From a virus, in the IMG/VR virus record IMGVR_UViG_3300037510_000387: DNA of 64,000 bases, one strand, 5' to 3'. Position 1 is the stretch's first letter; each line of letters opens with the position of its first letter. The translations under genes were made by a program, and so were the position numbers. The notes beneath the pieces were generated by a model. It had not been told where the DNA came from, made no database searches, and was given only the letters and a program-made list of their open reading frames with translations. This document shows, one piece after another, positions 1 through 55,763 of this stretch.

Positions 1-14
1 ATCCCTCCAAAAGA

Positions 15-566
15 TCAAGCGACGGCGCCGTAATTGGTCGCATCGCCGGTTGCCGCGTTGCCGATTTCCAGCTTGGCCCCCCAGGCTAGTGGCATTGCTC
101 CGTCTCCCGTGTCCTTGATCGACACTTTGACGAAACCGCCCGCCACATCGAAACGGATCTGCACGGAAGGGGCCGCTGGATCACTGAGCCAAACCGAGTA
201 CGTGTACTGCTTGGTGCCGTCGATGATGCCGATCACCGAGAATCGCTTGGGTGCGGCGGCAAGGGAAGCCCCCGCCGATCCCGTGGCTATCGTGCAGGCT
301 ACGGTCGAGGTTTGTGAGATCTGTGCGCCGACGCCGAACGACATGTCGAGTAGATCGGCAGTCGATCCACCGAGAGGGTCTGTGCCGGCGTTGGAGGTGA
401 CCGGGCAGTTCGTCTTGACCCATGCGGCGTTATCGAACTGTTCAGTTTTGGTCAGCAGGTTTGGGTTGATGACCGGAGCGGTAAACGACGCGACGTGGGA
501 CAGGCCGCCGGACAACCCCAGCGGATCGCCCAGGCCACCGAGCCCACGGTGCCACGAGAGGCTCAC
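15..566 (-). CDS. putative virion structural (fibre/spike-type) protein
   Basis: GTG start overlaps the TGA of the upstream gene (GTGA). NLLTKTEQFDNAAWVKT resembles a motif common in phage fibre/spike proteins; the protein is beta-rich in G/T/S/A. The ORF-track start at 947 overlaps another gene. Confidence 0.55.
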   Translation of the reverse strand: MSLSWHRGLGGLGDPLGLSGGLSHVASFTAPVINPNLLTKTEQFDNAAWVKTNCPVTSNAGTDPLGGSTADLLDMSFGVGAQISQTSTVACTIATGSAGASLAAAPKRFSVIGIIDGTKQYTYSVWLSDPAAPSVQIRFDVAGGFVKVSIKDTGDGAMPLAWGAKLEIGNAATGDATNYGAVA

Positions 567-877
567 AGTCCCAGCCCATCCATGCCCAGGAACGCGCGGA
601 ACGGCCCGGCCGCCGTTGTTCCCGTGCTCATCAGATGTTTCGGCAGGCCCAACTCGATGACCTGCCCCTGCGCGAGGTACACGTCCATGAGAGTGCCGTC
701 GAGCCAGGTAATCATGACCATGCCGCCGGCCCCACAGTTCTGGAGCCACTTGAACGGGACGCCGTTGCGTTGGAGGTTCAGGTCGGTTACGGTGTCGGAC
801 GGCGTGATCGCGTAGGGCCGGGAATAGCGCCGCGCGGGCACTTTGGCGTTGATGATCGAGGGTCCAGTGAGTGCCAT
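563..877 (-). CDS. hypothetical protein, probably structural
   Basis: 104 aa ORF tightly packed in the operon, with a beta-rich composition. Confidence 0.65.
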   Translation of the reverse strand: MALTGPSIINAKVPARRYSRPYAITPSDTVTDLNLQRNGVPFKWLQNCGAGGMVMITWLDGTLMDVYLAQGQVIELGLPKHLMSTGTTAAGPFRAFLGMDGLGL

Positions 878-880
878 CGA

Positions 881-1189
881 CTAAACCCCCGTCCCGGCCG
901 TACGGTCGTGAAGAATGATCGGCGAGTTGGGTCCGTACCCAATCCAACCATTGTGTCGATTCATCAAAGGGGTTGACTGGGCCACGGCTCGTGACAGCTC
1001 GCGTGACCAGACGTCCACAGTCTCGGGATCGCTGAGGTCAAAGTAGCTCGGCACGACGATTTTGCCATATTCGACCACGTCGACGGCTTTTGCGGCAGGT
1101 TCGGTCAGTGAGAGCTTGGCCAGCGGTGCCAGTGCCCGAACGATCGGCAGCGTAAACAGCCCAGCGAGTAGCCCACGCCGAGTCAACAC
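881..1189 (-). CDS. twin-arginine (Tat)-signal protein carrying a paralog of the major capsid protein N-terminus
   Basis: GGAGG RBS and GTG start; MLTRRGLLAGLFTLPIVRALA signal; residues YFDL...GP are 22/39 identical, ungapped, to the start of the MCP at 55487. Confidence 0.8.
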   Translation of the reverse strand: MLTRRGLLAGLFTLPIVRALAPLAKLSLTEPAAKAVDVVEYGKIVVPSYFDLSDPETVDVWSRELSRAVAQSTPLMNRHNGWIGYGPNSPIILHDRTAGTGV

Positions 1190-1689
1190 GTCAAACCTCC
1201 GCTACGCAACTGCTTACGGATCTCCAGATAGGCCAGGTGTGCCTCTTCGGGAGTTTCATAGTAGCGGCTTGTCTTCGCGACGCCCTCGAAGCGAGCCCGC
1301 GCATAAAAGCGCTTTTTGCACTTGACGTAATCAGGGAGCCGGATCACTCCTAACGGAAGATTATTCACCGTGGGCTTTTTTTGCCTGCGCTTATCGATCA
1401 TATCCTGCATGTTGTCGCTCAAGGTTCCAAGTCGCAGATGATCGGGGTTGACGCAGCATGGCGTGTCACACTTGTGCAGTACGTTCATGCCATCGGGAAT
1501 AGGGCCAACGTAAAGCTCGTAGGACACACGATGCGCCAGCTTCATGCCGCCACCGGTTCCACCGCCGCCAATGAGCCCGTAGCCGTTTTTTGCGCAGTGG
1601 GCATCCCACAGCCAGCAACCGGAGTTGGGCTCTGGGTAGTATTTGGACTCGAACCTCTCTCGGATCGGGATGCGAGTATGGTTAGCCAT
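1183..1689 (-). CDS. HNH homing endonuclease (HNH_3 type) with C-terminal AP2-like DNA-binding domain
   Basis: CWLW...AHRVSYELYVGPIPDGMNVLHKCDTPCCVNPDHLRLGTLSDNMQDM motif; C-terminal RFYARARFEG...YETPEEAHLAY. Confidence 0.9.
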   Translation of the reverse strand: MANHTRIPIRERFESKYYPEPNSGCWLWDAHCAKNGYGLIGGGGTGGGMKLAHRVSYELYVGPIPDGMNVLHKCDTPCCVNPDHLRLGTLSDNMQDMIDKRRQKKPTVNNLPLGVIRLPDYVKCKKRFYARARFEGVAKTSRYYETPEEAHLAYLEIRKQLRSGGLTC

Positions 1690-1691
1690 TG

Positions 1692-2210
1692 CTAAATTTC
1701 CGCATCCTTCAAAAAGAGCCCGCGGTTCGGTGCCAGCCGGTTCGTCACGCCGAGCGCGAACGCACAGAACACCTTGAGCGTTCCAGCCGCCGCCGTCGCC
1801 GACGCCGTACCCACCTTGAACGCACACCACTGATTGCCCACGTACCGGCCCACAGTCGCGGCGATGATCGAGTCGGACCCCGCGGCGGCCTGGCCGTTCG
1901 TCGAAAGCGAAACGAGTGTGAGGTTGACGGTGTCCGCGTCGTCGGTCACCACGATCGAGTACGTAAGCGCCGGGCTCACGTTCGTGTCCATGTCACTCGG
2001 GGTGGAACGCCAATTGAGGATGTACGCTCCGGCCGGAAACTTCCACAGCCGCACGATATTGCCCGCTCCCAGGCTCGTGCTCGGGATCGTGAACTTCTGG
2101 GCGATCGGGTTGTACGCCGGGCGCTTCTGGTCGCGTCGGGCGACAATGGATGCCTCGACCCAGCGGGTATCGAGACTGGCGAGCATTTCGGCCGCGTTGA
2201 CGGTTGCCAT
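1692..2210 (-). CDS. putative capsid decoration/minor capsid protein, paralog of 53837-54298
   Basis: GGAGG RBS; shares RLxKxP, SDxDT, SxxVTD and STxGQA with the gene directly downstream of the MCP. Confidence 0.65.
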   Translation of the reverse strand: MATVNAAEMLASLDTRWVEASIVARRDQKRPAYNPIAQKFTIPSTSLGAGNIVRLWKFPAGAYILNWRSTPSDMDTNVSPALTYSIVVTDDADTVNLTLVSLSTNGQAAAGSDSIIAATVGRYVGNQWCAFKVGTASATAAAGTLKVFCAFALGVTNRLAPNRGLFLKDAEI

Positions 2211-2357
2211 GAACGGGGTCCTCCCTCCGTTGGGCCCCACAGAGGCAGCAGACCCAGGAGCCGGCGGACGAGGGAGGGCGGCAGATTGGGGCCCCGACGT
2301 GCTGGTGTACCAGCCTCAAGCCAGGGTTAATTGGGTGTACGGCACCGGCTAGGGAAC

Positions 2358-2386
2358 AGGGTACAAGGAAGGAAGGGTCGTGTCAA
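2358..2386 (-). promoter_or_regulatory. sigma70-like promoter for the left structural cluster
   Basis: TTGACA-17nt-TACCCT in an intergenic region. Confidence 0.55.
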
Positions 2387-2545
2387 TGGGTTCGCGACAC
2401 GACAGGCGCGAGAGAGGATTCAGGAAGTGGAATTCCGGTATTGGTCAGCGTGTACGCGGGTTGGTTGGGGGCCCGTTTCCATTCGTAGGGTCGGTTCGAC
2501 TCGGTGACAGGCACAATGCCAACCAGTCCGGGTCGGTTGGCTCGA

Positions 2546-2869
2546 TCACGACGCAGGCTCCCTCGATACAGGGGACGCCAGACTGGCTTTGAGTGCAGCC
2601 ATCAAGTCAATCACTTCTTGAGATCGGCCGAGCGGTACGGGATCAGCCAACAGCTCGGCACAGTCGCCGGTTCGCGGTGGCACGTCGGACATCTCGTCGA
2701 ACATAGCGCCCATGATCTTGTACTCATCCATCTCAGAGTCCGTATAGTCTCCCTGGTCGTCGTCGGACTGTGGTCTCATCGTGTTGACCTCTTCCAGCAC
2801 GAGGCTAATCACCGGATGCCCTAGTCGGTATTTGCGGACTGCCAGCTCTTCCAGCTCGTTCGGGGTCAT
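2546..2869 (-). CDS. acidic hypothetical protein with Ku-like C-terminal motif
   Basis: AAAGGAG RBS; C-terminal EVIDLMAALKASL. Confidence 0.7.
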   Translation of the reverse strand: MTPNELEELAVRKYRLGHPVISLVLEEVNTMRPQSDDDQGDYTDSEMDEYKIMGAMFDEMSDVPPRTGDCAELLADPVPLGRSQEVIDLMAALKASLASPVSREPAS

Positions 2870-3039
2870 GGATTCTCCTTTCCCTGTACCGCTCGCACGG
2901 CGCGCATTTGCCACCATTCGATTTCGATCTCACAAGCACGGAGCACGTCGGTCGGCGCATTGAGCCGCCGGCTCTCGGCCAGCAGAGCACGATTCAGCTC
3001 CAGCATGTATAGCGGGTCGAGCCGGTCGACGTCTTTCAT
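2866..3039 (-). CDS. hypothetical protein
   Basis: short ORF with a 4-nt stop/start overlap with the next gene. Confidence 0.5.
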   Translation of the reverse strand: MKDVDRLDPLYMLELNRALLAESRRLNAPTDVLRACEIEIEWWQMRAVRAVQGKENP

Positions 3040-3044
3040 CACCG

Positions 3045-3584
3045 CTACTTCCACTTGTCAGGCCAACCGTCCGGTGGACGAGTCTCGTTCTTCTGTGTTG
3101 CTGTGTTGTACCTGTAGCGGTCGTGGTCGTGATCGGCCTTTTTTTGCAGCTTTCTCAGCCTCTCCTCGATCCCTACCGGGTCCCACTCATCGAACAGCCT
3201 TGTCAGCCTTTGCCGACACGCCTCGGCCGCCAGCACTGCCCGTTGCGCGATCTCGAATGGGGCGAACGTCGTGCCACTCGCGAGAATGGAGCACGCAAAC
3301 CCGAACACCCTGCCCAGCTCGTGTTCGGGCAACAGCTCGCCCGTCGCCTGGTCCCGGGCCAGGCTGTCTATTTCGCGGAACGTGGCGATGGCAAGGTCGA
3401 CGGCTTGGGCGTGCCCGACGCCGGATTCGAGAGCTGAGGCGACCATGGTCGTGATGAGCTGGTCACAACGGTCCACGTAGTCGCGCAGGGCGTCGAGGGG
3501 TTCGCCGCCGACGTTGGCCTCGATGGCGCGCTGGAGGTAGCGGCCATAAGGGCGGTCGTGCAGGTCGCGAAGAGGACGGGCCAT
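3045..3584 (-). CDS. hypothetical protein
   Basis: 179 aa helical ORF within the operon. Confidence 0.7.
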   Translation of the reverse strand: MARPLRDLHDRPYGRYLQRAIEANVGGEPLDALRDYVDRCDQLITTMVASALESGVGHAQAVDLAIATFREIDSLARDQATGELLPEHELGRVFGFACSILASGTTFAPFEIAQRAVLAAEACRQRLTRLFDEWDPVGIEERLRKLQKKADHDHDRYRYNTATQKNETRPPDGWPDKWK

Positions 3585-4237: not shown

Positions 4238-4696
4238 CTACGGTTTGACGATCAATGGACCGTTCGCTCCAGCGCGTTTCGGCCCACCATTTCCCGTGAT
4301 GCTGGCGATGTCCTGCGGCCCTGCCAGCACGATCCCGCTCTTGGCCTGCCGCTCGGCCTCATCATACGCCTCTCGTGCCACCAACACCAGGTACGCCACA
4401 TGTCGCTCGCTCGCCGGGCCGCGAAAATTCAGGGCTACGTCGCTCGGGATCGTGAGCAGCAGGCGCCCGACGTCGACGTGAGTCGGAAGATCGCGAGCCG
4501 GGGTGTTCTCGGGAACGAGCTGTCGCGCAATCTCGGGCGTGATCGGTTGCCGGCGCCGCTTGGCCGTGATGATGAGGGTCGAGGCCGGATCGTGCGGGAC
4601 GAACACGGGCAAGGCGACGACGGCCGAGGGGTTCATGGCGAGCATGCCCGGCAGTAGTTGCCAAGGATTGGTGATGTCGAGAGTGATGTTGCTCAC
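4238..4696 (-). CDS. hypothetical protein
   Basis: GTGA overlap with the upstream gene; 152 aa. Confidence 0.65.
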   Translation of the reverse strand: MSNITLDITNPWQLLPGMLAMNPSAVVALPVFVPHDPASTLIITAKRRRQPITPEIARQLVPENTPARDLPTHVDVGRLLLTIPSDVALNFRGPASERHVAYLVLVAREAYDEAERQAKSGIVLAGPQDIASITGNGGPKRAGANGPLIVKP

Positions 4697-4890
4697 CGGA
4701 GCATCCCCATCAATCGATCCTCTTTCCGCCAGCGTTCGACCGTGTCGTCACGCAGGATCTGCCCGTTACGGAGCTTTTGGTAGCCGTCGCTGACATGGCG
4801 TTCTCGGCCACGCAGGAACTTGCCCAGCGGACGCTCGTGCGGATTAAGCGGGTTGTAGCAGCCTCGATACTCATCAGTGGTGGTGCTCAT
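4693..4890 (-). CDS. hypothetical protein
   Basis: ATGA/GTGA overlaps at both ends. Confidence 0.6.
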   Translation of the reverse strand: MSTTTDEYRGCYNPLNPHERPLGKFLRGRERHVSDGYQKLRNGQILRDDTVERWRKEDRLMGMLR

Positions 4891-5105
4891 CCTTCCTTCT
4901 CCTTTGCACGTTCGCGACGCGCGATTTCCCGCTCAAGGTACCACTTCGCTTTCTGTAGATCCTCAATCCCATTCTTGAGATCAGCGCGCCAGATGTACTT
5001 GATCGCGTTGCCAAGGCGAAATCCCATGTGCTCGACGATCTCGATACACTCAATGCCCGAGGCGTGCGAGATATAGTGCGATGGGTGGTTGACGTTATCG
5101 GCCAT
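4887..5105 (-). CDS. DUF3310 (SaV-like) protein
   Basis: VNHPSHY...IECIE...GNAIKYIWRA..KNGIEDLQKAKWYL signature. Confidence 0.85.
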   Translation of the reverse strand: MADNVNHPSHYISHASGIECIEIVEHMGFRLGNAIKYIWRADLKNGIEDLQKAKWYLEREIARRERAKEKEG

Positions 5106-16210: not shown

Positions 16211-16946
16211 AGACGCTGAGCTGGCGCATTCCTTGGCCGTCTCGCAAGGGATGTATGGGACGCCCCCGTTTGTGAAAGTCATGAATCCGGGAACGCTAGA
16301 GGGGCGCGTTTTCGTTAAAGCGGAGTGGGACGGTAAGCGCTTGTCCATAACTGGCGTAGATGGCCCCATGCATAACGGCGACGCACGCGGCGGGTGCGGT
16401 CAAATTAGCCTTAAAGATGCTCTCCCCGTGAAGCCCTGGACCGCCGAGATGATTGCGCGGCTCGCCGAGATCTGGCATCGTTGGCACTTAAACGATATGC
16501 GTGCCGGATGCGAGCACCAGCGTGCGGAATTCGACGCAGGGAGGATGCTGGAGCTGCAAGAGTTGACATGGGGTGACGCGTACAACAAGGCAAGGGGGCG
16601 CGCCGTTAGTGGCGAGATGACACCAGGCGAGTATCGGGAGCACCAGCGCCGTACCGTGATCGTCGAGCGCCTAACGATTGCCATGGATCGGCCAAAGCAT
16701 CCCGACCTGTGGGGCGAGGACGGCGAGGAAATGTTGCGGGCTGATATGGTGAAGCTCGGGAAAAGGGAAGTCAGGGCGGCCGGATGGGTGAGTTACAGGG
16801 AGCACCCAGAGGGCTTGCTGTCGCGCACCTGCCCAACCTGCGGATATCGCTATGGCACGGCGTGGCTCCATGAAGATGTGCCGCCGGAGGTGCTAGAAGA
16901 GATCAAAGCGTTCCCGGACGCGCGGATTACTCCGGCGTGGATTTAG
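16185..16946 (+). CDS. conserved phage hypothetical protein with C-terminal zinc finger
   Basis: WHRWHLNDMRAGC...CPTCGYRYGTAW. Confidence 0.75.
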   Translation: MENLPLTTKDAELAHSLAVSQGMYGTPPFVKVMNPGTLEGRVFVKAEWDGKRLSITGVDGPMHNGDARGGCGQISLKDALPVKPWTAEMIARLAEIWHRWHLNDMRAGCEHQRAEFDAGRMLELQELTWGDAYNKARGRAVSGEMTPGEYREHQRRTVIVERLTIAMDRPKHPDLWGEDGEEMLRADMVKLGKREVRAAGWVSYREHPEGLLSRTCPTCGYRYGTAWLHEDVPPEVLEEIKAFPDARITPAWI

Positions 16947-17036
16947 GCGGCCTTGACGGCGAGAGCATCGCGCCTGGCCCTCCGCTGGGCGCCTGAAGCT
17001 AACAGCGCCACAGAGCGCAGAAAGTGAGAACGTCAA

Positions 17037-17537
17037 ATGAACGTCACAAGCAAAACCGCCAGTACCTACGACCTCGCCGAAGCCGCGCGCATGGCCGCGC
17101 AAGAAGTGGGCGTCCGTCTCTACAACCTGCGCGACTCAGGCCGTGGGATCGCCTTCACCCTCAAAACGGGGGAGCCCAGCGAACAGCGCACGGACTGGCG
17201 CGGCAAGCTCCGGTGGGCGCCTAAGTACCAGCGCCAAAGCCAGCGCGAACGCGTGAGCACGGCCAGGGGGCACGAAGGGGAAATGTTTTACCCAACGATC
17301 CCGGGGGCGGTCTGCTGGCATGGACATCGCGATTTTTTACGCGCGCTCTATGCCAGGGTCCCCGACGCCAAGGTCCGCACGGCGTTTACGACGTACCAGA
17401 ACGCCGCGCATTTCGAGGCGACGTATCGCGACACCTACGACGGGCCGCAACGGGACGCCAGTCCCAAAAACCAGGGGTTTGCTAGTTACGCCCGGCCGTA
17501 TCAGGACGCATGCTCCTGCGATGAGGGGGGCGTCTAG
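17037..17537 (+). CDS. early hypothetical protein
   Basis: CWHGHRDF motif; 166 aa. Confidence 0.7.
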   Translation: MNVTSKTASTYDLAEAARMAAQEVGVRLYNLRDSGRGIAFTLKTGEPSEQRTDWRGKLRWAPKYQRQSQRERVSTARGHEGEMFYPTIPGAVCWHGHRDFLRALYARVPDAKVRTAFTTYQNAAHFEATYRDTYDGPQRDASPKNQGFASYARPYQDACSCDEGGV

Positions 17538-18860: not shown

Positions 18861-19222
18861 GTCAGCACAAATGGATGTTGGACAACTGGACCTATACGAT
18901 CTCCGAAAACAGCCCAACCACCGTAGTGGTTTCGGCCAATGACGGATCGGGCATGGGAAGGCTGTACGTGCCGAGCGAGGTTGGTCGAGAGATGCTCCGT
19001 CTGGCCCAAGAGCACGAAATGCAAAACGCCGAGGAGGAGTCCCGGCAGGCGTGGCGTAAGCGTGCTAAGAAATGGGAGGCCATGCTGGTCGCTGTAGCCC
19101 AAAAACTGGAACGATGGGCAGCAGAATCGAAGGTTGGGGGCTGGTCCACCCATCAAGTCAAGCCACAGCAAGATCTGGCCGCTGAAATCTTCATCGAATT
19201 GGGCCGTGCGAGGTTCCAATGA
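18857..19222 (+). CDS. hypothetical protein
   Basis: AAGGAGG RBS; GTGA overlap. Confidence 0.7.
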   Translation: MSQHKWMLDNWTYTISENSPTTVVVSANDGSGMGRLYVPSEVGREMLRLAQEHEMQNAEEESRQAWRKRAKKWEAMLVAVAQKLERWAAESKVGGWSTHQVKPQQDLAAEIFIELGRARFQ

Positions 19223-19494
19223 GCGCCTTCAACCACGACATTATCCAACAAATTGCTGCTTTGCACGCGCATAACGTATGCTCGTACCTGCGCGGGCGGC
19301 TCAACGCGCGCGTCGTAGAACGTCTGGCACCAGCGAACGACGGGCACGGGCTGACACGATACCGGCTCGTGTTCCGGGCTCGTGGGGCAAGCGCAAACGA
19401 CAAAACTGGGCACCGCGAATGGACGGGGACGCTGCCCGAGATCTGCCGGGAGTACGGGCTCGATATCGGGCGGGTCGTGGAGCAATGCCGATGA
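19219..19494 (+). CDS. hypothetical protein
   Basis: ATGA overlap. Confidence 0.6.
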   Translation: MSAFNHDIIQQIAALHAHNVCSYLRGRLNARVVERLAPANDGHGLTRYRLVFRARGASANDKTGHREWTGTLPEICREYGLDIGRVVEQCR

Positions 19495-52001: not shown

Positions 52002-52259
52002 TCACTTCCCGTGCGTCAGCCACCAGATCAAAGCTGCTAGTGCGGACGGCACCAGGCCAGCGATTGCGCCCCAGATCCCCGCTTTTTGTTTGAGCAGGGC
52101 GATCTCTACCTTCACATTAGCGATGTCGTCGGCCCGAAACGCATCCATCTTCCGCTCCAGATCCTGCACCTGCGTGCATACCCTCGTGAGTTGATCGAGC
52201 ACGAGCAGCTTGTACTCGTTCCACCCCGGCGTCGGAGGCCCTCCCAGGTCAGTGCTCAC
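52002..52259 (-). CDS. holin-like / XhlA-like coiled-coil + C-terminal TM protein
   Basis: coiled coil then GIWGAIAGLVPSALAALIWWL; GTGA overlap with the PAS gene. Confidence 0.6.
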   Translation of the reverse strand: MSTDLGGPPTPGWNEYKLLVLDQLTRVCTQVQDLERKMDAFRADDIANVKVEIALLKQKAGIWGAIAGLVPSALAALIWWLTHGK

Positions 52260-52684
52260 TGTGGCGTGTCCCTCTTGCGCCAAACGACCGCTGACGTAAT
52301 AAGCCCGGCCGTGGTCATGCGCGGCGACAGGGTAATTTCGACAGGGACCTCCTTGCCGTTCTTTTGCCTCGCGGTTAAGGACATGCCAATGCCCATCGGA
52401 CGCTTTCGCGGGTCGTCGGCATAGCGAGCCCGGTGCCCGGCGTGAGCCGCACGAGCCGATTCAGGAACGAGCATCTCGACCGGCTGGCCGATTACCTCGG
52501 ATCGCGGATAGCCAAACAACAGCTCGGACGCGGCGTTGAAATATACGACGTGTCCGGCCTCGTCTACGGCCAGAAACGGCACCGGTAGATCCTCAAGCCA
52601 ACCAGCAACGATCTCAGGCCCGATCAGGTCTTGAGTCAGCTCGCGAAGGCGCTCCAGGCCGGCAGGGGTAGATTCGTCAGTCAA
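52256..52684 (-). CDS. stand-alone PAS-domain protein
   Basis: GGAGG RBS and TTG start; PFLAVDEAGHVVYFNAASELLFGY..SEVIGQPVEMLVP...H..HR..Y...P..RPMGIG..L.A..KNG.EVPVEITLS. Confidence 0.9.
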   Translation of the reverse strand: MTDESTPAGLERLRELTQDLIGPEIVAGWLEDLPVPFLAVDEAGHVVYFNAASELLFGYPRSEVIGQPVEMLVPESARAAHAGHRARYADDPRKRPMGIGMSLTARQKNGKEVPVEITLSPRMTTAGLITSAVVWRKRDTPQ

Positions 52685-53836: not shown

Positions 53837-54298
53837 CTAGTGCTTCATGCCGGTCGCGCTGTACCCAGTCATACCGATTCCGTACACCCAAGTCCCCGGC
53901 GCCGCCGTTGCCGCCTGGGTATCGATCAAGATCTCCACCCAGTAGTTGACGTTGTCGGTACACCAGCCGATGGCGTTCTCGGTCGCCGGGGCCTTGGTCG
54001 GCCGCGCCAACCCTCCCGCCTGGCCCGCCGTCGACTGGTAGATGATGTACTTCGTCGTGGTGCCGTCCGTCACTCGCAGGCTGAAAACGATCGCCGCCGT
54101 GCCCGTGTCCACATCCGACACCTGGACGAACGAATCCGCGGTGAAGACGATGTTGATGGGCACCTTGAGCAAACGCCGGGTGTCGTTTGTTGAGCCCGGC
54201 GTGAAGGTCTCGGTGAAGATCGGAATGTCGAGCCGAGCCGAGCCCTGCGGCGCGGGCGGAATGAAGTAGTTGTAGTACGTGCCATTCACAGCAGCCAT
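53837..54298 (-). CDS. putative capsid decoration/minor capsid protein
   Basis: AAAGGAGG RBS; directly downstream of the MCP; beta-sandwich composition. Confidence 0.7.
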   Translation of the reverse strand: MAAVNGTYYNYFIPPAPQGSARLDIPIFTETFTPGSTNDTRRLLKVPINIVFTADSFVQVSDVDTGTAAIVFSLRVTDGTTTKYIIYQSTAGQAGGLARPTKAPATENAIGWCTDNVNYWVEILIDTQAATAAPGTWVYGIGMTGYSATGMKH

Positions 54299-54329: not shown

Positions 54330-55487
54330 CTAGGCCGAGGTCACCAGCTCCTGTGCGTAGGACACGACAACGATGCGCCCGTAGTCGTCGGTCGTCCCTT
54401 GTTCCTTGACCGAGAAATTGGGGCACGCGAGACCGAGGAACGACGTGGCCGCGATGGCCTTGTTGTTCCCGAAGTCCCAGTTCTCTTCGTCGTTCTGGAA
54501 CAGGTTCTGGCCGTCGTACTCCTTGGCGACGCCGAACACGAGGCTCTGGGCGCCACAGAAGGCGTTGCGACGGGCGTTGGCGACGCGAGTGTTGGTCGAG
54601 CTGAGGCCCGGCGGCACGTAGTTGTTCTCGACGATGAGCACGTCGTCCCAGATGCCGAGGGCGCCAGTCCACCACGGATGGTTTTCGACTTCGCCACCGA
54701 TCATGGCCGCACGCATCACCTCCATCCACTGCGAGTTGGCCTTCATGTGGCGCAGGGCGTAGCTGTGGGCGAACAACACGTACAGCTCCCGGCCGTTGAT
54801 CGACGCCGGCCTGATCGGGATCGGCATGTTCTTGGCGTAAGCCTTGAGCGTGCTGATCGTGTCCAGGTCGATGATCGCGCTGGGGTCGTTGCCCGTGTTC
54901 GTGTCGTCGGTGTCGGTGTTGTTGCCGATCCGGTAGATGTGCTTGGAGTCGGGAGCGTGAGGAGCGTTCGAGAGCGTGTACCCCAGGCTCGCCCCGTTGT
55001 GATACCACTCGGCCTGGGTGCGGACATCATAAGCGACGCCGCCAAGGTGCAGCATCGCCCCGGCTTCGAGCACCTTCGCCCAGTAGATCCCGAGCGAGTC
55101 CTTGCTCTCCTTCCACACGTTCCAGGTGACACGCTTGGCGGTGACACGGCCCACGACCTTCGTGGCGTGGCGGACCTGGTTGATCTGCCACTTGAAGGTC
55201 GCGGTATCGAACGTTTCCTCGCGATCACGGAGCGGGGTATTGCCGAACGTGGGCTCGCCGCGCAGCTCGCGCTTGAGGGTAACGGTTGCCTGGGTGCCCG
55301 AGCCGCCGCCGTTTTCCGAGTCCCACACCTGCTTGCGCTTCTGGCACAGGGCGTCGGGGCCGTCACCGATGAACCCGTACCGCTTCGACATGAGAGGAGT
55401 GCGAAGGGCAATCTGCACCATCAGCTCCTTCTCCCATTTCTGGACGGTTTCCGGGTCGGTCAGGTCGAAATATTGGGAATTGGCCAT
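54330..55487 (-). CDS. major capsid protein (N4-gp56/DUF4043-like)
   Basis: GGAGG RBS; DPETV..W..EL, TLK.ELRGEP..G...L...EE, YVLFAH...G.W..V.I.E; follows portal and scaffold. Confidence 0.88.
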   Translation of the reverse strand: MANSQYFDLTDPETVQKWEKELMVQIALRTPLMSKRYGFIGDGPDALCQKRKQVWDSENGGGSGTQATVTLKRELRGEPTFGNTPLRDREETFDTATFKWQINQVRHATKVVGRVTAKRVTWNVWKESKDSLGIYWAKVLEAGAMLHLGGVAYDVRTQAEWYHNGASLGYTLSNAPHAPDSKHIYRIGNNTDTDDTNTGNDPSAIIDLDTISTLKAYAKNMPIPIRPASINGRELYVLFAHSYALRHMKANSQWMEVMRAAMIGGEVENHPWWTGALGIWDDVLIVENNYVPPGLSSTNTRVANARRNAFCGAQSLVFGVAKEYDGQNLFQNDEENWDFGNNKAIAATSFLGLACPNFSVKEQGTTDDYGRIVVVSYAQELVTSA

Positions 55488-55763
55488 GTTGGGCCAAACC
55501 TCCTGCAAGGTCTGCAAGTCCGGTCAGTTGGTGTCTGCCCCCGGGCGACGAGCGATAAGATCAGTCCGATGCCTGGGGACAAGCCGTCGTGACAATGCGT
55601 TGTGCTGCCGGAGGTTTATGCAGGAGGTCCGGTGACCTGCGGCCCGGATTCGTGCGGGTGTCCGGGTCCCGCGGCCTGGGCTTGGGGAACGCCGCCCAGG
55701 AAGGCGCGAGCCGGGAAGAGAAGGGGAGATGGGGGGCTCCCGGCGGCCCTTGGAGATGAAGCT
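55488..55763 (-). promoter_or_regulatory. ~275-nt structured 5' leader of MCP with two anti-SD elements
   Basis: four hairpins; ACCTCCTGCA (55619-55628) and AAACCTCC (55610-55617) are complementary to the MCP SD region TGCAGGAGGTTT. Confidence 0.6.

Follow-up and report, generated by a model that had tools for sequence, protein, structure and literature searches.

An ancient copy of the capsid N-arm behind a twin-arginine segment in a dispensable late gene of a soil phage

Small phage proteins imitating one face of an assembly interface have been known chiefly from satellites, which hijack the capsids of their helpers. In SaPI1, for instance, the satellite protein CpmB has a C-terminus that mimics the C-terminus of the helper-phage scaffold, and it binds the capsid protein. 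The protein considered here is likewise small and accessory and reproduces part of a capsid-assembly interface, but it copies the capsid arm rather than the scaffold, is encoded by a phage instead of a satellite, and carries an export-like signal that CpmB lacks. The phage has copied the arm of its own shell protein and added what resembles an export or anchor signal, a combination selected in some lineages and lost in close relatives. Literature searches turned up no account of an export signal joined to a copied capsid arm.

In the capsid of phage GP4, whose major capsid protein (MCP; 8h89_A) is the solved structure nearest to the MCP examined here, the N-arm spans residues 2-47, and its tip (residues 2-15) forms, together with the E-loop, the pedestal for trimers of the cement protein (PMC9698820). 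In RcGTA, the Leu/Gly-rich N-terminus of the head-spike fibre anchors the fibre, through a five-leucine star, in a pentameric base (PMC7296036). Tat hitch-hiking offers a further comparison: carriers such as the small subunit of periplasmic [FeFe] hydrogenase (PF02256) are, like the protein described here (hereafter the mimic), small, and join a Tat-like signal to an extended, non-globular segment, which in the carriers wraps a folded partner lacking a signal of its own; any such cargo of the mimic is hypothetical. The PF02256 small subunit is the best named Atlas feature neighbour of the mimic (0.86, a lead only), whereas sequence homology between the two is absent and the mimic has no PF02256 match.

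The window, meaning the whole stretch of 64,000 nucleotides that was analysed, is nearly all of a 64,727-bp IMG/VR virus record (IMGVR_UViG_3300037510_000387) of a soil phage. Its given classification is linear, with 80% completeness. Synteny with a relative leaves the window at ~60 and resumes at ~63,940, which makes the genome a circle or circularly permuted; since the gene order of the relative genomes L001 and L004 bridges the two ends of the record with no gene missing, the genome is probably complete and circularly permuted. The phage is an uncultured podophage, probably lytic, and its capsid is of the GP4/N4-gp56 type; among the genes scanned were those for DNA polymerase A, a helicase and ThyX, but none for an integrase. 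Its closest cultured MCPs, less than 32% identical, come from phages of Paracoccus, Ralstonia, Burkholderia and Rhizobiales, which makes a diderm proteobacterial host likely.

Table 1. Window coordinates of the mimic gene, its parts, its neighbours and the capsid genes
Feature	Coordinates	Strand	Details
p178, head-spike fibre	15..566	-	NF048003 41.9 bits, above cutoff 36; GTG start overlaps p104 stop
p104, head-spike base, RcGTA Rcc01079 type	563..877	-	NF048002 E 3.2e-5, 24.1 bits, cutoff of 28 not reached
Arm-mimic gene	881..1189	-	102 codons plus TAG stop at 881-883; GTG start at 1189-1187
Arm copy, codons 48-89	923..1048	-	diverged whole MCP N-arm; tblastn at 1048-923; BLASTP E 3e-13
Linker, codons 25-47	1049..1117	-	Pro/Ala/Val-rich; length and sequence vary in the family alignment
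Putative Tat-type signal or anchor, codons 1-24	1118..1189	-	T-R-R-G-L-L-A, 12-residue uncharged hydrophobic run, R-A-L-A, Pro-Leu
HNH homing endonuclease, free-standing	1183..1689	-	between p182 and mimic; PF13392 E 4e-14, PHROG endonuclease families
GGAGG ribosome-binding site	1196..1200	-	6 nt upstream of mimic GTG, within last codons of HNH gene
p182, second cement (decoration) protein paralog	1692..2210	-	conserved in every relative examined
p153, cement protein directly after MCP	53837..54298	-	family profile's sole PDB match 8h89_J, E 0.013
MCP	54330..55487	-	385 aa, N4-gp56/PF13252 type; PF13252 E 3.5e-33, phrog_334

The arm copy and the major capsid protein

A first reading of the sequence alone had aligned the C-terminal half of the mimic, without gaps, to the beginning of the MCP, and this alignment not only holds but extends: residues 48-89 of the mimic and residues 15-56 of the MCP, in the numbering of the TTG-started ORF (54330-55517, minus strand), are identical at 22 of 42 positions with no gap. 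The MCPs of relatives are 385 aa long and start MANSQYFDL, which puts the true start of the MCP at the ATG at 55487; in that numbering the copied stretch becomes MCP residues 5-46 (window 55475-55350), and the stretch originally named, 55356-55472, lies correctly within it. Set against the GP4 N-arm at residues 2-47, these limits indicate that the mimic copies the whole arm and nothing beyond it. A six-frame search of the whole 64.7-kb genome returned the mimic gene itself and the MCP arm (E 2.5e-11) as its sole matches. Compared with MCPs of the N4-gp56/GP4 type (PF13252; 8h89), the mimic is homologous to the entire arm over residues 48-89 and keeps the conserved positions, but it has no E-loop, P-domain or A-domain, and its arm sits in the C-terminal half behind the signal-like segment. 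No Pfam family, PF13252 included, matches it, and only the 42-residue arm aligns to the MCP; it is a fragment-derived protein and not a capsid protein.

The likeness is real and of long standing. In the stretch YFDLSDPETV, eight of the nine identical residues are indeed encoded by different codons, as had been observed at the outset, and across the alignment a codon is shared at 8 of the 22 identical residues, compared with 11.0 expected under independent draws from the genome codon usage. Because synonymous sites are saturated, the arm duplication is ancient and the likeness is kept at the protein level. Within the alignment of mimics, W61 and L65 are invariant even when the MCP arm is included, while R63 is invariant in the five mimics and K or R in MCPs; these three residues and the FDL, DPE and TPL motifs coincide with the conserved residues of the MCP arm. 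A notion that conservation within the MCP peaks in the arm proved false, identity being 69% over the arm and 70% overall.

In another reading the mimic would be a cytoplasmic factor, dominant-negative or assembly-directing, whose arm copy binds scaffold or MCP and either tethers procapsid assembly to the membrane face or poisons the assembly of co-infecting relatives, the arms of which are ~70% identical. The acidic arm tip is a scaffold contact in other phages such as P22, and the tip (FDLxDPE) is included in the copy of the whole arm. In keeping with an action on relatives, the window mimic scores slightly better against the MCP arms of three relatives than against its own MCP arm. Tracking of the cognate MCP by the mimic was therefore not apparent in the window, the one contig recovered with both a mimic and an MCP. 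As to the cytoplasmic factor, however, twin arginines at the extreme N-terminus predict an N-in/C-out topology, which would place the arm on the wrong side of the membrane, and a poison of this kind would also act on the phage's own assembly, so that the cytoplasmic reading is quite unlikely.

An AF2 model of the mimic, with a pLDDT of 52.6 that is too low for a fold search, has no globular fold; it places helices at residues 5-27 and 55-71 with a disordered linker between them (pLDDT below 50 at residues 23-45). Around the end of the linker, residues 40-49 (EYGKIVVPSY; window 1040-1069, minus strand) bear a weak likeness to the conserved C-terminal strand of the MCP, DYGRIVVVSY (7/10, E 0.034), and this likeness is confined to the subclade of the window and the family member P0002. 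If it is real, the gene may have arisen from the junction between MCP C-terminus and MCP N-terminus in a tandem duplication.

Distribution, insertion site and selection

An exhaustive phmmer search of 1.84 billion representatives found four further clusters of mimics (87-101 aa), and the family now holds at least five diverged lineages of 87-102 aa that are ~35-60% identical. Its locus is conserved: the homologs in L001, L004, L006 and L007 share the start position and are invariably flanked by homologs of one pair of genes, p182 and p104, with the mimic starting 1-14 nt past the p182 stop. All members begin x-T/N-R-R-G-[LF]-[LI], and all but one have the arm motif FDLxD...W.REL. The exception, P0003, retains DP...W.REL only; its arm-likeness is largely lost and its N-terminus kept, in a setting of neighbours 81-93% identical to those of the window (p182, 81%). 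Searches elsewhere returned little: the mimic has no Pfam, PHROG or PADLOC match, the family has no NCBIfam match except to the Tat signal, tblastn against 50,697 phage records found nothing, and neither the mimic, sought in viral, metagenome and genome collections, nor the spike base, sought in the viral one, gave a match.

The gene is tightly packed with, or overlaps, its neighbours, and it is part of one long leftward block that runs into terminase, portal, scaffold and MCP; on the circular map it lies ~10 kb upstream of the MCP gene on the same strand. Within window positions 1-3200, neither a sigma-70-like promoter nor a minus-strand terminator, the signals by which a moron would be recognized, was found. 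In the window, the start of the mimic gene is overlapped by the stop of an inserted HNH gene. No HNH gene occupies this junction in L001, L004, L006 or L007, and in L016 an HNH gene (4458-4967) whose product is 48% identical stands at the same place, so the p182/p104 junction is an insertion hot spot. The HNH gene as the carrier of the mimic fragment was rejected, given that L001, L004, L006 and L007 have the mimic without it. A further HNH gene was seen at the terminase/portal junction of L009 (5688-6212). An early observation was that the mimic and MCP genes share a Shine-Dalgarno context: GGAGGTTTG does precede the start codons of both genes, but at the mimic it falls within the 3' end of the inserted HNH gene and is not shared by the relatives, and the sharing is therefore coincidental. 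On the downstream side, at window 877-884 (minus strand), the mimic and the spike-base gene stand in one frame, separated by the TAG and one codon, and the same is true of L001; a fusion of the two proteins by stop-codon read-through was considered and dismissed, as the frames differ in L004, L006 and L007 and the arrangement is hence not conserved.

The mimic gene was absent from all five relative genomes (L010, L012, L013/L014, L015 and L016) that were reached through their terminase or MCP, and hence independently of the mimic. In these genomes the p182 homolog is followed directly by the p104 homolog, with the HNH gene in between in L016, and they include L013/L014, whose MCP is 98.7% identical to that of the window. 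Absence from every independently reached relative means that the gene is optional and dispensable. Where it is present, it is under selection while evolving several-fold faster than its surroundings: against L001, its nearest relative, its dN/dS is 0.18 (neighbouring genes, 0.05-0.19), well away from the value near 1 that the sequence-only reading had held to speak against a conserved protein, and against L004 its dN is 0.76, compared with 0.05-0.17 for the flanking genes. Saturated synonymous sites, this dN/dS and five diverged members together uphold the original view of a conserved protein as opposed to a fresh duplication.

The mimic gene is a real, selected and dispensable late gene. A functionless remnant, decaying after recombination at an insertion hot spot, might be expected at a junction that also takes HNH insertions, in a gene that most relatives lack. 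Such a relic is nevertheless highly improbable, as the frame is open, length and start are conserved in five lineages only ~35-60% identical, the dN/dS is low, and strong purifying selection acts on the N-terminus even though synonymous sites are saturated.

The N-terminal twin-arginine segment

The mimic begins MLTRRGLLAGLFTLPIVRALA, and the next residue is Pro. The twin-arginine, hydrophobic and ALA layout that had been noticed from the sequence alone is present, and the Pro that follows ALA had been overlooked. At residues 3-9, T-R-R-G-L-L-A fits the Tat consensus S/T-R-R-x-F-L-K, and R4, R5, G6, L11 and L23 are invariant across the five mimics. The original proposal of a Tat signal stands in part. 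In its favour are the invariant RR-G, the scores of P0004 and P0005 against TIGR01409 (19.1 and 19.8 bits; cutoff 16.7), and the exported bacterial proteins that share the start MLTRRG[LF]LAGL: in bacterial MAGs, a decapeptide identical to the beginning of the mimic opens a sulfatase, a small Tat-signal protein and a lipoprotein-like FKBP of periplasmic type. On the other side, the window's own copy has no TIGR01409 match (nor do P0002, P0003 or the N-termini of the neighbouring fibres), PF10518 matches one of the five family members (E 0.038), and the uncharged run after the twin arginine is 12 residues long in the window, P0002 and P0003, as against 17 and 19 in P0004 and P0005. The TATFIND rule calls for an uncharged hydrophobic stretch of at least 13 residues after RR. 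Mean KD hydropathy of the run is 1.6-2.4 across members.

Relative to Tat signals and uncleaved anchors such as those of bacterial Rieske proteins, the mimic has in common T-R-R-G-[LF]-[LI], a Gly/Ala/Leu-rich run and a basic residue after it, but its n-region is very short, its exact residues are unusually conserved, and the window copy combines its short run and its missing HMM match with a Pro after the only AxA-like site. ALA, VLA or ALT is followed by Pro in three of the five members and P0005 has Thr-Pro, and P0004 and P0005 are without AxA. A Pro at +1 blocks signal peptidase I. Since Pro follows the ALA-type site and two members lack AxA altogether, cleavage seems unlikely, and if the mimic is targeted at all, the signal probably stays on. 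Over residues 1-24, the window, L001 and L004 are identical at 19-21 of 24 positions, with about half of the identical residues encoded by different codons; this is tighter than a generic signal peptide would need and hints at a specific contact. No other credible ORF in the genome has such an N-terminus. The Atlas feature neighbours, again as leads only, include TAT_signal, the Rieske Tat domain and the small subunit of Fe-hydrogenase.

An origin of this segment in in-frame translation of the MCP leader, suggested by a gapped tblastn extension (ALSRRLVLAAL in L013/L014), was rejected; by itself the match scores below dozens of chance hits, and it is missing in more distant relatives. Homology to the spike-base anchor of the fibre was likewise set aside, as the N-terminal profiles of mimic and fibre miss each other in both directions, leaving scattered pairwise alignments with z of 3.2-3.9.

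The signal-like N-terminus could mean that the mimic is simply a small exported or inner-membrane protein with a job unrelated to the capsid, e.g. superinfection exclusion at DNA entry or the timing of lysis, its arm-likeness being a mere vestige of descent from the MCP gene's 5' end. A sporadic distribution and fast divergence are typical of host-interaction genes, and P0003 has kept the N-terminus while mostly losing the arm motif. Yet mimics and MCP arms keep the same positions, although the arms do not fold autonomously, and the gene belongs to a late structural operon without a promoter of its own, in a genome whose scanned genes lack an integrase; a role wholly apart from the capsid is, on balance, unlikely.

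The capsid-exterior module and candidate partners

The mimic gene stands in the order cement paralog p182, HNH insertion, mimic, spike base p104 and spike fibre p178. The p182 and p153 families are paralogs by profile comparison (hhalign probability 95.4, E 1.7e-8), and their joint profile finds the cement proteins of GP4 (8h89_J, E 2.1e-7) and Pam1 (7eel_H, E 3.8e-7), both solved in capsids with related MCPs; profiles of the single families give weaker matches. The phage and all examined relatives have two such paralogs, one after the MCP gene and one before the head-spike genes. The nearest Atlas cluster to p104 is named spike base protein (score 0.93). The fibre p178 is hypervariable, being 30-39% identical to the fibres of L004 and L001, with the exception of its first ~24 residues, which are conserved and Leu/Gly-rich (GLGGLGDPLGLSGGL; 20 of 24 identical to those of L001) and resemble the five-leucine star anchor of RcGTA. 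For the annotation of this uncultured clade, it is useful to have two cement paralogs together with RcGTA-type head spikes in a podophage.

This setting lends itself to a reading in which the mimic is a virion-bound decoration adaptor, its hydrophobic N-terminus serving not for export but as a peptide that docks into a protein, perhaps a cement trimer or the spike-base pentamer, and its arm copy slotting into vacant arm grooves of the capsid lattice. Within one operon the gene has a cement paralog on one side and spike base and fibre on the other, the partners of the arm are all on the capsid, and a conserved N-terminus of ~24 residues before a fast-evolving remainder is the pattern of the neighbouring fibre, with which some of the pairwise N-terminal alignments mentioned above also agree. 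Like the Rcc01080 anchor (PMC7296036), then, the mimic has a Leu/Gly-rich N-terminus, a spike base for a neighbour and a conserved anchor followed by a variable rest. The likeness does not reach the profile level in either direction, however, and the fibre N-termini have neither a twin arginine nor a Tat match, whereas two mimics exceed the Tat cutoff. Docking on the virion leaves the invariant twin arginine unexplained, and the gene is dispensable, so that this role too is rather improbable.

The same setting told against the first idea raised by the sequence-only reading, that of a soluble decoy soaking up a host defence sensor of the MCP N-arm. Capsid-sensing defences exist, and the gene is accessory and fast-evolving; the genomic context adds nothing further to the proposal. 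There is no PADLOC match or anti-defence signal, and the gene belongs to a capsid-decoration module, not an anti-defence island, and to a structural operon, hence with late expression; moreover, its best-conserved part is the hydrophobic, RR-bearing N-terminus, which a cytoplasmic decoy would not need. A decoy is therefore very unlikely.

The reading preferred here, tentatively and at less than even confidence, is that of a bipartite adaptor, a Tat-targeted or membrane-tethered arm mimic that would grip one of the proteins partnering the MCP arm, the neighbouring cement paralog being the likeliest. Since the N-arm has no fold of its own, its copy would most likely act by mimicry, capturing in trans a protein whose normal hold is on the MCP arm. 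The most obvious partner would be p182, because the arm tip and E-loop of GP4 carry cement trimers and p182, a cement-type protein, is encoded immediately upstream; MCP and scaffold are the alternatives. The twin-arginine segment, probably uncleaved and serving as an anchor, would direct the complex of arm and partner to the Tat machinery or the inner membrane, following the logic of a Tat hitch-hiker small subunit such as the belt-like one of periplasmic [FeFe] hydrogenase. As the partners of the arm are all cytoplasmic or on the virion, an exported arm makes sense only with a co-exported partner; the stricter version of the adaptor, in which it carries folded p182 to or across the inner membrane by way of the arm interface, is doubtful. 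Any benefit to the phage would be conditional and accessory, since most relatives lack the gene and its evolution outpaces that of its neighbours several-fold.

Several observations argue against the adaptor. All five independently reached relatives have p182 without the mimic, and P0003 has mostly lost its arm-likeness beside a p182 that remains close to that of the window. The window copy combines the lack of a Tat HMM match with a run of 12 uncharged residues after RR, and conservation of the first 24 residues at the level of single residues is unusual for a mere signal peptide. Should the arm copy bind a cement or capsid protein, it would represent a compact, natural case of interface mimicry linked to membrane targeting, as well as a handle on the recognition between N-arm and decoration protein in T=9 capsids of the GP4 type; carriage of p182, if true, would be the first phage case of a capsid-assembly interface re-used as a secretion adaptor.

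Some further features of the clade were seen along the way. The terminases P0041 and P0098 exceed the norm of ~620 residues by ~400-560 and contain LAGLIDADG domains (PF14528), with a Hint domain in P0041 as well, which suggests inteins. The virion operon of L013, the closest relative, includes at 18919-19356 a gene for a stand-alone PAS-domain protein (PF00989, PF08448, PF13426), in synteny with window ~52002-52684, and in L012 a Pesticin-like, lysozyme-type gene (16676-17338) lies between scaffold and MCP. Lysis genes differ in position and type across the clade, with a T4-type lysozyme in L001 and L013 and a GH19 enzyme in L007.
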